Below are positions 24,132 through 47,455 of a DNA stretch of 64,000 nucleotides, in pieces; the first letter of the stretch is position 1, and each line of letters opens with the position of its first letter. The stretch is from a virus (Duplodnaviria > Heunggongvirae > Uroviricota > Caudoviricetes): positions 353,291 through 417,290 of the IMG/VR virus record IMGVR_UViG_3300021431_002946. The stretch is one strand, 5' to 3'. Both the position numbers and the translations under genes were made by a program. The notes under the pieces were generated by a model that was given only the letters and a program-made list of their open reading frames with translations, searched no databases and was not told the DNA's origin.

Positions 24132-24159
24132 TTTACTTTCTGAAAAAAAGTATTATAAT
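24132..24159 (+). promoter_or_regulatory. sigma70-type promoter of the sigma gene
   Basis: TTTACT-16-TATAAT; predicts a ~55-nt CA-rich leader. Confidence 0.65.
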
Positions 24160-24222
24160 ATAATTATAAAATTACGCACACTTATAACACACACAATACT
24201 TTAAATAAAGGAGTTACTTTGA

Positions 24223-25212
24223 ATGAGCAACATTATTACTATTATTAATGCTATTTCCCAAAACAAGTGCATAAAAATGGAAGATCTTAAACCTTATTTG
24301 GAAGAGGTTGAAGAGAAGGAATACAATGAGATAATGAACTATTTACTTGATAATAGTTATTATATCATTGATGATGAAGATTATGAAGAGTTAGATGTTG
24401 AAGCAGAAGAAAAGAATTCTTCAATTGGCGGTACAAAGTGGTGGTTAGAAGTAATTCAGCAGTACCCTTTGCTTACTAAGGAACAGGAACAGGACCTGTA
24501 TATTTCAGGAGATTATGATACTCTTATTTGTTCAAATCTTCGTCTTGTTGTTTCAATTGCAAAGAAGTATTTGAACAGAGGTATTTCTTTAGATGACCTT
24601 ATTGCAGAAGGTAATATGGCGCTTACAAAGATTGTAAAGAAGTTTGACCCTGAAAGAGGTACAAAGTTTTCAACATTTGCAACTTGGTGGATTAGACAGG
24701 CAATTACAAAGTATATTACAGATAACTCTAAGTCAGTAAGACTTCCTGTTCACGTAACAAATGATATTAACAAGTTGTATAAGGCAGCAAAGAAACTTAC
24801 AGATAAGTTCAATAGAGAACCTACAATGGATGAACTTATTGAAGAAACTGGTTTTACTGAAGATCAGATTGTAAAATTCAATAAATATAACCAGGCTGTA
24901 ATTTCTTATGATAGTTCTATTTCTGACGACTCTGATAACACTATTCTTGATTTTATTGGACATCAGGACGATGCTTCTCAGAATGAACAGAACTTCTACA
25001 AAGAAGCAGTTACTGATCTTATGACTGTTTTGACAAAAAGAGAGCAGACAGTAATTAAACTTAGATTTGGTCTTAATAAGGAACAGAAATGTTATGGTCT
25101 TGAAGAGATTGGTAATCTCATTGGTGTAACTAAACAGATGGTTAAACAGATTATAAAGGGTTCTATTAGAAAGATGGCAATAAGCAAAAAAGCTAGAAAA
25201 TATGAAGATTGA
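24223..25212 (+). CDS. RpoD-like sigma70 factor (regions 1.2-4)
   Basis: YPLLT.EQE, SNLRLVVSIAKKY, DLIAEGN, KFDPERGTKFSTFATWWIRQAI, VRLPVH, LTKREQTVIKLRFGL. Confidence 0.93.
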   Translation: MSNIITIINAISQNKCIKMEDLKPYLEEVEEKEYNEIMNYLLDNSYYIIDDEDYEELDVEAEEKNSSIGGTKWWLEVIQQYPLLTKEQEQDLYISGDYDTLICSNLRLVVSIAKKYLNRGISLDDLIAEGNMALTKIVKKFDPERGTKFSTFATWWIRQAITKYITDNSKSVRLPVHVTNDINKLYKAAKKLTDKFNREPTMDELIEETGFTEDQIVKFNKYNQAVISYDSSISDDSDNTILDFIGHQDDASQNEQNFYKEAVTDLMTVLTKREQTVIKLRFGLNKEQKCYGLEEIGNLIGVTKQMVKQIIKGSIRKMAISKKARKYED

Positions 25213-31389: not shown

Positions 31390-31818
31390 ATGATTAATAC
31401 ATCAACTGTTTATTTAGGTGTAAGTAGTAATAAAGTTGTATATATTATTACTGAACCTAATGGAAATAAAAATATTTATTATTTAGAAAATAATAGAACT
31501 TATGAAGGTAATTTAACTGAACAATGTAAAAAATATATGAGAGACGTAATTGAAGAAATTGTATCTCATATTTATACTGATACAATTCATTTGTATGCTA
31601 ATATATGGCATGGAGTATTTGATTTTTCTGGAATAAATAAAAAAATTTTAACAAAAAGAGATTTTGCTTTAATGGGTCGACAAACTCCTATAAGTGCAAT
31701 TCGTCTTATGGATTTAGTAGATGAATTAGCACATGCTGCAAATAATATTGAATTTACAGATTATAATATAATTTTAGAAGATTTGTCATACTTATTTGAT
31801 ATAGATAAGAATAAATAA
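31390..31818 (+). CDS. hypothetical protein
   Basis: RBS AAAAGGA before the ATG at 31390. Confidence 0.6.
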   Translation: MINTSTVYLGVSSNKVVYIITEPNGNKNIYYLENNRTYEGNLTEQCKKYMRDVIEEIVSHIYTDTIHLYANIWHGVFDFSGINKKILTKRDFALMGRQTPISAIRLMDLVDELAHAANNIEFTDYNIILEDLSYLFDIDKNK

Positions 31819-35577: not shown

Positions 35578-36351
35578 ATGAATAAAAGAATTATTACAAG
35601 CTTTTTGATTACTAGCCTGCTGTTTTCTTTAACTGCATGTAAGAAAAATAAACCTATTGAAACTACAATATCTGAAATAACTACTATTACAGAAGAAACA
35701 ACTACAGTTGAAACTACTGCTGAGACTACTGCAGAAATATCTAAGTCACGCTCTCCAGAAGTTATAATTGATACATCAGTTGAAACAGATCAAGAATCAG
35801 CGGTTATTGGTAAAACTACAGTAACAGATCAATATAAAAAGACATTTAAAAATGAAATTTTAGGTAAAGTTACTGCAAGAATTCCAAAAGTAATAATTGA
35901 AGGTATAGATACAAAAGAAATCAATAGTGAAATTTTAAAGAGCATTAGCAAAAAAGCAAAAGGTAATAAATGTAGTTATCAGTATTATATTGGTAAAGAT
36001 TATGTTTCTATTATTATTGAAATAGATGATAGTGGTATTGATCTTGAACAACATTATATTTATAATATTTCAAGAATAACTGGTAAAAAGTTAACTCAAG
36101 CTGAAATGTATACTGTTCTTGGAATTACTGAATCATCTTACAAATCAAGAGTAAAAACTGCAATTAAGAAAATGTGGAAGAAGAATGGCTGGATTACAGG
36201 ACAAAAGAAGTTATATAATAAAGCCATTAGTAATAAAACAATAAATAAAGCAGTCCTTTATGTTAATAAAAAAGGTAAGGTCAGTTTCTTAGTTAGAAAT
36301 ATGAACTTAGGAGCTGGAGCAGATGGTTATGATGTCTTAGGCACCTGTTAA
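35578..36351 (+). CDS. lipoprotein with T/E-rich linker
   Basis: signal peptide with lipobox LTAC; start re-assigned after RBS AAAGGA. Confidence 0.8.
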   Translation: MNKRIITSFLITSLLFSLTACKKNKPIETTISEITTITEETTTVETTAETTAEISKSRSPEVIIDTSVETDQESAVIGKTTVTDQYKKTFKNEILGKVTARIPKVIIEGIDTKEINSEILKSISKKAKGNKCSYQYYIGKDYVSIIIEIDDSGIDLEQHYIYNISRITGKKLTQAEMYTVLGITESSYKSRVKTAIKKMWKKNGWITGQKKLYNKAISNKTINKAVLYVNKKGKVSFLVRNMNLGAGADGYDVLGTC

Positions 36352-36372
36352 CTATAATAGGAGAATAGTTAT

Positions 36373-37383
36373 ATGAAAGATGATAAATTTGATTATGGTT
36401 CAAAATTAGATGAAAAAGATTTTGAACAAAAAACTGCAAAAGTAACTAAAATTTCTGAAGACGTATTAGATGATGTACAAAATGAAGAAACTGATAAAGA
36501 AGAAAATAATTCATTATCTGGTATACGTCCAAAGATGCTTAATAAAGATTCAATATTGACAATAGTTGCAACTTTAGTTCTTGCATTATTAATTATTGGT
36601 ATTGCTTATTTAAGAACTAAGAAAACTATTGATGATAATAATAAAGTTATCGAACATAATTATGCAGTTAATACTACAACAACTGAATCTTCTGAAGAAG
36701 ATGAAACTACAAAAGATTATGGTAAAAATAATGATTTAATGGATCGTTATTTAAAAGGTACAACTGTAGATGAACCTTATCCTGATGATTATTGGGAAGT
36801 TCAAAATGAATCAGGAAAAGCAAATGAAAATGAAGAGCATTTAACTCAACTTTATTTCAATATTACAAATGATAAGTATTATAATCATCATTTATTAGAT
36901 ATTGATACTTTAGCAATTGATGGTAATCTTGTTGATTTTCCAAATACTTATGAATATTTAAAGAAAATATTTGGTGAATTTACATTTGATTATCAAACTT
37001 ATGGTGAAAATTTTAATGAAAATTCTATAGTTGAAGATGAAGTTGAAGTTACTGCTGAAGGTAAAACAGGTATTGGTGAAATAGTTCTTACATTTAGTTG
37101 TGAAGGTACACCAAAAGCATTAAAAGATTGTAAATGTTCTGAAGTTCAATTAACAAGTTTTAATTATTATTCAGATAAAAAGAATATGACAATTGCTTTA
37201 CCTGGTAATGTTAAATTTGGTGATAATTATGAAACTATAACAAATAATTTTCCATTTATTGGTGAATTGATTAGTTCAACTGATAATTCATTTACAATAG
37301 AGTATTCCACTTCTCAAGGTTATAAAGTATACTTAATAGGTGATATGGGTGGATTAACTCAAGTTATTATAAAATATAAGTAA
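36373..37383 (+). CDS. single-TM membrane-anchored protein
   Basis: one TM helix, acidic extracellular domain. Confidence 0.7.
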   Translation: MKDDKFDYGSKLDEKDFEQKTAKVTKISEDVLDDVQNEETDKEENNSLSGIRPKMLNKDSILTIVATLVLALLIIGIAYLRTKKTIDDNNKVIEHNYAVNTTTTESSEEDETTKDYGKNNDLMDRYLKGTTVDEPYPDDYWEVQNESGKANENEEHLTQLYFNITNDKYYNHHLLDIDTLAIDGNLVDFPNTYEYLKKIFGEFTFDYQTYGENFNENSIVEDEVEVTAEGKTGIGEIVLTFSCEGTPKALKDCKCSEVQLTSFNYYSDKKNMTIALPGNVKFGDNYETITNNFPFIGELISSTDNSFTIEYSTSQGYKVYLIGDMGGLTQVIIKYK

Positions 37384-45915: not shown

Positions 45916-46362
45916 ATGTATATTTATAAGTCATTTAAATGTCCATATTGTGGTAAAGTTTTTGATAGCGATCTTGGTGTAACTGAGTTTTATAAATATA
46001 AAGATAAAAAAGTAATAGGTCAAGATCACGGATGCGGACCTTTTATTACTGAATTAAATGATTCATATTTAGATGTTATTAATAAATATTATGGAATAGA
46101 AAATATTCCACTTTCAGTAAGAAATTCTATTTATGAACTTGTAGAAAATAATATACAAAATGTTAAAGATGAAAATGATATGTTTAATATTGTAGTTCAA
46201 GAATTACAAGAAGAACGTCCAATAATTGAATTACAATTAACTAATATTGTAATATTTATACAAATATGTATGTCATATCTTACTATGCCTAGATTTTCTT
46301 TACCTTTAACTGAAGATATAAAGAAAGAATTAATTCTTGATCACATAATTTGTTTTGATTAA
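45916..46362 (+). CDS. hypothetical protein
   Basis: CPYC, ORF track. Confidence 0.6.
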   Translation: MYIYKSFKCPYCGKVFDSDLGVTEFYKYKDKKVIGQDHGCGPFITELNDSYLDVINKYYGIENIPLSVRNSIYELVENNIQNVKDENDMFNIVVQELQEERPIIELQLTNIVIFIQICMSYLTMPRFSLPLTEDIKKELILDHIICFD

Positions 46363-46381
46363 AAGGCTATTTAACTATAAT
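46362..46381 (+). promoter_or_regulatory. class-2 motif, copy 4, ending in TATAAT
   Basis: AAAGGCTATTTAACTATAAT directly upstream of the candidate sRNA. Confidence 0.65.
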
Positions 46382-46384
46382 ACA

Positions 46385-46456
46385 GAGTCAAAGTAACTCG
46401 TATTGTGTGTGTATGTGTAATAATGTCTTAGCAATTTATTTTGCTAGGACATTTTT
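46385..46456 (+). ncRNA. candidate trans-acting sRNA antisense to the sigma-factor 5' UTR
   Basis: promoter plus terminator unit; 46388-46399 complementary to 24211-24222, 46400-46412 to 24187-24199, 46414-46421 to 24171-24178 (one G:U). Confidence 0.7.
46422..46456 (+). terminator. intrinsic terminator
   Basis: AATGTCTTAGCAA-tttatt-TTGCTAGGACATT plus T run. Confidence 0.85.
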
Positions 46457-46506
46457 ATTACTTCAATTTAATTAGTTATATATTTATAAAGGAGAAAAAA
46501 TAAGAT

Positions 46507-46746
46507 ATGTCTTTACAAAATGAAAATGCATTAAATGCTTTAAGAATTAGTGTAAAATATATGGAATCTCAATTAGAGGCAACACATAATTATATTGTAA
46601 CTATTCAAAATGGCAGAAATGAAGATTCAAGCGCTTATGCATTAACTGAAGAAATGCAAAAGTTAAGAGATTCATATGCAAATACTATGAGTAATTATAA
46701 AAAATTATGTGAACTTCAAAATGTAGATTTTAATGATATTATTTAA
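46507..46746 (+). CDS. small coiled-coil protein
   Basis: RBS AAAGGAG. Confidence 0.7.
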   Translation: MSLQNENALNALRISVKYMESQLEATHNYIVTIQNGRNEDSSAYALTEEMQKLRDSYANTMSNYKKLCELQNVDFNDII

Positions 46747-46758
46747 GGAGGTAATATT

Positions 46759-46962
46759 ATGAAAAAGATAATAAAGTCTCGTAAAGGTTTTACTTTAGTA
46801 GAAATGGTTCTTACTATTGCTATAATTGTTATTCTTGCTGCAGTTTTAATACTTGGTATTGGTACATATCTTAATAAAGCAAAGGCTGCCGCTTCTTCTG
46901 TAACACATCATAATTCTTCTATTTCTATTCTCACAAGTGAGATTGATGACGCAATGCAATAA
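46759..46962 (+). CDS. type IV prepilin-like peptide
   Basis: basic leader KSRK-G|FTLVE plus hydrophobic helix. Confidence 0.9.
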   Translation: MKKIIKSRKGFTLVEMVLTIAIIVILAAVLILGIGTYLNKAKAAASSVTHHNSSISILTSEIDDAMQ

Positions 46963-47008
46963 GTTTATTATAAAAAATTAATTAAAATAAATTAAGGAGA
47001 AACTAATT

Positions 47009-47359
47009 ATGGAAAGAAATGATGTTATAAAAGTTTATGATACTTTTTTAAAATATTTTGAAAATATTATGGCTAAAGGTGGTTTAGGAAGACTAGATGG
47101 TGATACCAGTCCTATGGATTGGGAACCTCAATTAAAAGCATTTCCTATATTAACTGATGATGATATAGCAAATATAAAAGATCATTCTACTAATGATATT
47201 GATACTTGTATAAAATTTATTATGTTTTATTCTTTTTATATAGTATCTGAACCAGATATATTTGATATTATTCGTTTTGTTAAAGATGAAACTAATATTC
47301 AATTAGATACAGATACAATTAAAAGAATGCAAATTTTTATGAATGAATTATATAATTAA
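47009..47359 (+). CDS. hypothetical protein
   Basis: RBS AAGGAG. Confidence 0.7.
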   Translation: MERNDVIKVYDTFLKYFENIMAKGGLGRLDGDTSPMDWEPQLKAFPILTDDDIANIKDHSTNDIDTCIKFIMFYSFYIVSEPDIFDIIRFVKDETNIQLDTDTIKRMQIFMNELYN

Positions 47360-47455
47360 AGAAAATATATTTATATAAAGAAATTTTATAAATTATGAAA
47401 TTAAATTTAAAAATCCACTTAAATAATTATATTAATAATTAAAAGGAGTTACATT

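Follow-up and report, generated by a model that had tools for sequence, protein, structure and literature searches.

The window analysed here is a stretch of 64,000 nucleotides (353291-417290) from an IMG/VR phage record of 467,383 bp, a genome with direct terminal repeats, 27% G+C and almost all of its genes on the + strand. Coordinates below are those of the window unless they are marked as genome positions. Gut metagenomes of sheep, goats and cattle contain near-identical DNA; the phage, which is uncultured, is one of the rumen and gut. A blastn search of the phage GenBank collection gave zero matches, and IMG/VR, queried with the sigma factor, ORF148 and ORF79 described below, returned only distant or unrelated contigs that differ in GC and lack the class-2 motif with which this account begins. 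A family of inverted repeats of 25-29 nt (TATCTATATATATCAAATAAGTATGACAA...) sits at three distant genome sites, 67452, 211197 and 385069 (the last is position 31779 of the window), and could be a homing or recombination site.

The unit under study lies on the + strand between ORF148 and ORF79. It starts with a class-2 phage promoter motif, AAAAGGCTATTTAACTATAAT (46361-46381), recognised by its recurrence and its fixed spacing before genes. The motif begins within the stop codon of ORF148 and ends in the -10-like TATAAT (46376-46381). It probably acts as a promoter, and the usual spacing predicts a transcription start at 46385-46388, 4-7 nt downstream of the -10. There follows a segment of 25 nt (46388-46412), made of two blocks and delimited both by exact, unique reverse-complement matches and by a MAFFT alignment, and then a third block, TGTGTAAT (46414-46421), delimited by pairing and alignment, which lies in a family-conserved box, rTGGATGTGAAyAAT, before the hairpin. 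In that terminator-like hairpin (46422-46453), of the AATRCCTWAG family, 13 pairs enclose a loop of 6; TTTATTACTT, a T-rich tail, follows. The 5' third of the unit RNA is predicted to be mostly unpaired.

On both strands, 46363-46506 is free of ORFs of 30 aa or longer. The first gene downstream is ORF79 (46507-46746, + strand), with AGGAG at 46490-46494, and the next is a 67-aa pilin-like gene (46759-46962). An earlier note on this DNA had claimed a promoter-like motif, a terminator-like hairpin and no coding sequence in the unit, and all three are as it described them. Rfam gives nothing that reaches the gathering score in the whole window and nothing at E <= 1 in 46300-46560, so the unit is taken to be without a riboswitch. 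On its upstream side, ORF148 contains a stretch (46040-46063) that has a split 24-nt inverted match to genome position 261847.

The second locus is a sigma-70-family gene (24223-25212, + strand) whose product of 329 aa contains Sigma70 regions 2, 3 and 4 (Pfam, PHROG). By pattern match it stands behind a host-type promoter, TTTACT-16-TATAAT (24132-24159, + strand), as had been claimed. This is one of about 38 class-1 matches on the + strand (consensus AAAGTTATTTACA-N17-TATAAT), and it is kept in the two relatives, A and B, discussed below. The sigma leader is predicted to be unstructured, and the blocks to which the unit is complementary lie at 24171-24222. Elsewhere in the genome, tRNA-like sequences follow host-type class-1 promoters at 286461, 286816 and 314464, so the phage tRNA genes are seemingly of the early class; the 64-kb window itself contains no tRNA genes.

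This sigma gene has company. At least four genes of the phage belong to the sigma-70 family and have regions 2 and 4, and a fifth match is to region 4 alone; outside the window, the matches are at genome positions 36148-36858 (- strand), 219094-219801, 220365-221090 and 275353-275445 (all + strand). Such a set suggests that the phage has a cascade of sigma factors.

A repeated module of promoter and hairpin

The earlier note took the unit for a dedicated sRNA gene. This does not stand, for the unit is 1 of about 30 copies of a promoter with a proximal hairpin, copies that normally precede genes. With up to 4 mismatches allowed, the + strand has about 40 copies of the motif AAAAGrCTATTTAAnTATAAT and the - strand two; for a looser class-2 core the counts are 84 and 21, respectively. 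The class-2 motif is found at a fixed distance 5' of genes, and its copies are of two types. In the first, which ends in TATAAT, a spacer of 11-17 nt (consensus rTGGATGTGAAyAAT) nearly always leads to a hairpin. The base of this hairpin is conserved, AATRCCTWAG...CTWAGGYATT, its interior varies with compensating changes, and a T-run comes next; after the hairpin come a Shine-Dalgarno sequence (SD) and then, mostly, a small gene. In the second, which ends in TATATA or TATACT, the promoter leads directly into SD and ATG, 23-32 nt on. Within the window, 1758, 25276 and 44181 exemplify the TATATA type and 46361 and 51267 the hairpin type. The split may reflect control by attenuation or antitermination, or else insulation from upstream read-through.

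About 30 family hairpins exist in the genome, 19 of them at 11-17 nt behind a recognisable class-2 promoter, and the composite of promoter and hairpin is also present in more distant relatives (contigs L021, L023 and L033). When 21 units are aligned by MAFFT, the unit of the window is the family consensus with a 24-nt insertion right after the -10. This insertion, of 24-25 nt, coincides with the first two blocks of the antisense segment, and the third block is the family-conserved box.

Other units with long spacers are found at genome positions 92838, 143426, 157373 and 158256. No convincing target for them was found among start regions, which counts against reading the insert in the window as a regulator. 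The spacer unit at 158256-158330 does have a perfect complement of 17-18 nt at genome 334618-334635, inside a 123-aa ORF (334542-334913), but this is probably chance, since inverted matches of at least 17 nt are common in the genome.

Complementarity to the leader of a sigma gene

Reverse-complemented, block 1, TCAAAGTAACTC (46388-46399), gives exactly the sequence of 24211-24222, which runs from the GAG of the SD to the base before the ATG of the sigma gene. In the same way block 2, GTATTGTGTGTGT (46400-46412), gives exactly that of 24187-24199, and block 3 pairs with ATTACGCA (24171-24178) with one G:U. Bulges of 8 and 11 nt separate the target blocks in the mRNA. If the sigma transcript starts near 24166, the three blocks take up 33 of the 57 bases of the leader, from about +6 to -1. 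Blocks 1 and 2 and the reverse complements of both each occur once in the genome of 467,383 bp. The colinear pairing in three blocks drawn in the earlier note, from SD to ATG included, thus holds in every coordinate and every pair.

It might be argued that an AT-rich genome, a GT-rich spacer and a CA-rich leader would produce such complementarity by chance. Exact inverted matches of 17-18 nt are indeed common across this genome, and shuffled GU-rich spacers already reach -18 on the sigma leader. The observed pairing goes far past this. When the whole + strand is scanned with RNAduplex, the sigma leader comes out on top at -38.6 kcal/mol, with a runner-up at -31.8 and a background of -12.6 +/- 3.4. 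Of the 600 start regions that were predicted, that of sigma ranks first, -38.6 against -24.7 for the next, a gap of 14 kcal/mol. The best value over all regions for 120 dinucleotide shuffles of the spacer averages -24.6 +/- 1.9, with a minimum of -31.5, so that the real value lies 7 SD beyond these shuffle extremes. This comparison with phage start regions and shuffled controls, suggested when the pairing was first noticed, therefore puts the sigma leader well above the shuffles. It gives no such standing to two leaders proposed as weaker targets: that of the RNAP beta gene, at -24.7, is at shuffle level (mean of the shuffle best -24.6), and that of NDT falls outside the top ten of the 600.

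A cofold leaves the hairpin intact and gives a ddG of -31.6, against -14.2 +/- 3.1 for shuffled leaders. Inverted matches of 24 nt in split form link about 10 pairs of loci genome-wide, and that between unit and sigma is the only complex pair beyond one repeat family. The match is very probably beyond chance. Uniqueness in the genome, the scan of the whole strand, the shuffles and the census of inverted matches together effectively refute the idea of chance complementarity, whose likelihood I put at next to nothing.

I propose that the unit RNA is a trans-antisense regulator of one phage sigma mRNA, and I would give this a probability of about 0.45. According to the model, a standard module of promoter and proximal hairpin gained an insert of 24-25 nt at the extreme 5' end of its transcript. 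Two RNA species would then be probable, one of about 70 nt that terminates at the hairpin, the other a 5' leader to the ORF79/pilin mRNA. The unit RNA would pair in trans with nearly the whole 57-nt sigma leader, including part of the SD and the spacer to the start codon, where such RNAs classically repress, and the duplex would block binding of the 30S subunit, trigger cleavage, or both. Synthesis of this early sigma, driven by its host-type promoter, would be shut off once class-2 promoters fire. I infer from sequence the transcription start, the short species, the pairing in vivo, the repression and the timing of the class-2 promoters. A feedback loop of this kind requires that the 24223 sigma be the one that reads class-2 promoters, and the presence of at least four sigma-70-family genes leaves it unproven. 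The RNA could equally well belong to a hand-over from one sigma to another or to an autoregulatory loop.

Contigs from the locus are present in two metatranscriptome runs, each from a different study; one covers 46395-46545 with no mismatches and the other 46434-46614 with 2, both in ORF79. At a depth of 2-3 these contigs cannot define RNA ends, and with carry-over of DNA a possibility they are unproven as transcripts. The first contig base, 46395, is 14 nt past TATAAT, and in neither run does a contig fall on the 210 nt upstream of the unit; these positions fit initiation at the class-2 promoter. The contigs cross the hairpin into ORF79, so the antisense segment is at least in part an mRNA leader. 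The claim that the locus makes its own sRNA of about 70 nt is thus favoured by the hairpin and its T-run and disfavoured by contigs that run on past both. For the sigma leader no true RNA contig was found.

The fact that pairing stops exactly at the base of the hairpin (46421/46422) invites the reverse view: that an abundant early sigma leader pairs with the nascent leader of ORF79 and thereby alters termination or the stability of the ORF79/pilin mRNA. The module family, too, suggests control at the level of the hairpin. Still, the hairpin survives in the cofold, the SD of ORF79 is about 70 nt distant, and the family offers no precedent. Regulation in this direction seems to me highly improbable.

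Exchange at the locus and the descent of the insert

Relatives of the sigma factor consist of one cluster at 98%, one group at 66-67% and then none above 47%; the YfbR-like neighbour gene has many relatives. Relative B (contigs L018, L019, L020 and L026) has a sigma 67% identical to that of the window. Directly after YfbR it has an orthologous unit, with an insert of the same length and in the same place as the insert of the window, and one contig, L026, holds both loci, unit and sigma. Relative A (L014-L016) is 88% identical to B; its unit was not recovered.

In B, the lineage-specific 5' part of the insert is an anti-SD that forms a duplex of 10 bp, with one mismatch, with the SD region of B's own sigma leader; to this is added GUGUGU:ACACAC. 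Both sigma leaders, of B and of the window, have the ACACAC that faces the shared GUGUGU. The cognate pairing in B, at -20.3, ranks third among 44 start regions with a shuffle p of 0.028, and the non-cognate pairing reaches -19.0. The sigma leader is thus not the best site in B, and cognate is barely above non-cognate. As a check on covariation in relatives this provides one informative genome, in which a rank of 3/44 and a p of about 0.03 are suggestive only. A perfect target for the B insert is absent from about 31 kb of B and from the window genome, where it meets only generic start regions that contain an SD. Pattern scans in IMG/VR, with the conserved 3' spacer and with the complement of the B insert, returned only unrelated phages, and a scan of JGI metagenomes returned one copy of the window type.

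The similarity between the window and B changes abruptly within the unit. The backbone is 67-80% identical, and 46406-47406 (L018:10621-11609) is 94-97% identical, a segment that comprises the 3' spacer, the hairpin, ORF79, the pilin-like gene and ORF116. The jump, in mid-spacer, points to recent lateral exchange of a cassette whose breakpoint would lie inside the spacer. Because identity jumps at 46406, the first 18 or so nt of the insert are peculiar to each lineage, and opposite them in the pairing lies the stretch from SD to ATG of each sigma leader, which is likewise peculiar to the lineage. This is suggestive but falls short of proof.

Closer strains show little variation at either locus. 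The unit is identical in at least three independent samples. In one strain (X3, contig L038) both loci are the same as in the window; 34 of 3893 bases differ, with 0 in the last 210 (P about 0.16), so the lack of SNPs in the unit is not significant. In another (X5, contig L042) the leader has one change, C24199T, which retains a G:U pair with G46400; this is the only leader variant seen. Neither strain provides an informative compensatory change, the second being covered at the leader and not at the unit.

Around the unit, variation is considerable, with five or six gene arrangements among strains. ORF148-unit-ORF79 is found in the window and L038, unit-ORF79 in L018, unit-ORF103-ORF79 in L019 and L026, and unit-ORF158-ORF79 in L020, and L034 has ORF79 without the unit. 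In the mosaic contig L036 (1-240), a 3' end of ORF148 like that of the window is joined, inside the promoter, to a B-type unit and to ORF158, an ORF of 158 aa found also in L020. The combination of a window-type flank with a B-type unit implies that the insert is exchangeable. Crossovers fall inside the promoter (L036) and inside the spacer (46406). Variable small ORFs flank the unit, and breakpoints between close genomes lie in the promoter-hairpin motif.

All this must be held against the possibility that the insert does nothing. A recombination-prone cassette may have taken in, by a templated event such as template switching seeded on (GT)n/(CA)n microhomology, a stretch of the sigma leader in inverted form, the segment being merely carried in the ORF79 leader with no regulatory effect. 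A functionless insert of this sort is a quite plausible if doubtful reading, close behind that of a regulator: the identity is perfect, the context prone to recombination, the insert swappable and the conservation weak. Recent copying typically leaves identity as perfect as this over 25 nt, which has the look of a templated origin more than of a seed shaped by evolution; apart from two deletions, the spacer in reverse complement can be aligned along the entire leader. The locus is hyperplastic, as judged by its arrangements and crossovers, L036 shows its insert to be swappable, pairing in relative B is weak, and the RNA contigs are those of an ordinary read-through leader.

It is harder to see why a useless copy should agree in place and length with the insert of another lineage, given a sigma identity of only 67% between the two. 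A relic that old should not stay 25/25, when strains at 98% already differ by a SNP in the leader. Orientation, position at the 5' end and coverage from SD to ATG would all have to come together by coincidence. The segment is antisense and stands at the 5' terminus, it covers the ribosome-binding region, both partners are predicted to be open and the specificity is extreme; on these grounds, a trans-antisense regulator of the sigma mRNA is the best single reading.

The exchange of inserts may be taken one step further. The modules of this clade might be a platform for exchangeable riboregulators, in which a guide of 24-25 nt placed at +1 makes a trans-acting antisense RNA and recombination inside the module exchanges guides among genomes. 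The guide of the window, perfect for one sigma start region, and the anti-SD guide of B would be two examples. I regard so general a scheme as unlikely. If true, it would place an RNA switch within the phage's cascade of four or five sigma factors.

Comparison with known systems

RNAs directed at phage regulators have several precedents. P1 c4 acts against icd/ant, and P22 sar acts against ant; c4 lies upstream, in the operon of its own target. Lambda has antisense RNAs on its own transcription regulators, aQ against Q and OOP against cII (PMC12197685). Like these four, the unit RNA would be a small, perfectly complementary phage RNA aimed at a regulator of the phage's own transcription programme. 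Unlike aQ, OOP and sar, which mostly lie opposite their targets, the unit is 22 kb away on the same strand, so its RNA must act in trans. It does not lie on the opposite strand of the same locus, as a cis-antisense RNA does.

Trans-encoded phage sRNAs that occlude ribosome-binding sites include VpdS of vibriophage VP882 and DicF of prophage Qin (PMC12197685). The unit resembles them in having a promoter, an unpaired 5' seed, a hairpin of the Rho-independent type and pairing across a distant SD and start. It differs in that its pairing is far longer, with 25 perfect nt, that its target is a phage sigma factor, and that its RNA is set within a repeated promoter-hairpin module and runs on into mRNA. 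There is also a bacterial parallel. SreA and SreB of Listeria are terminated leader transcripts that act in trans on prfA, and here too a short RNA ended at a promoter-proximal terminator would double as a trans antisense on the leader of a regulator. The unit differs from them in having no riboswitch.

The module itself can be compared with the PeSLs of T4-type phages, repeats made of a promoter and a stem-loop (PMC2839356, PMC4122927). The likeness extends to dozens of such composites, small variable ORFs and recombination that shuffles cassettes. In PeSLs the stem-loop lies mostly between or over the -35 and -10, a placement by which it chiefly halts transcription arriving from upstream (PMC2839356), whereas here the hairpin is part of the transcript and follows the -10 after 11-17 nt. 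The promoters here are also of a phage-specific class without a -35, and one copy has an antisense insert. Even if that insert is only a templated relic, the locus documents PeSL-like cassette shuffling beyond the T4-type phages.

A huge phage that has RNA polymerase subunits of its own and several sigmas must time its gene expression, and very little is known of how this is done. In the review cited above, no earlier example was found of a phage sRNA aimed at a phage sigma gene (PMC12197685). A trans-encoded RNA directed at the start region of a phage sigma, and set within a promoter-terminator module that recurs in the genome, would represent a form of its own among the systems compared here. 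If the proposal is correct, sigma is shut off by an RNA acting in trans, through a short guide placed in a standard promoter-terminator cassette, and phages would have in this a simple, evolvable device for timing.
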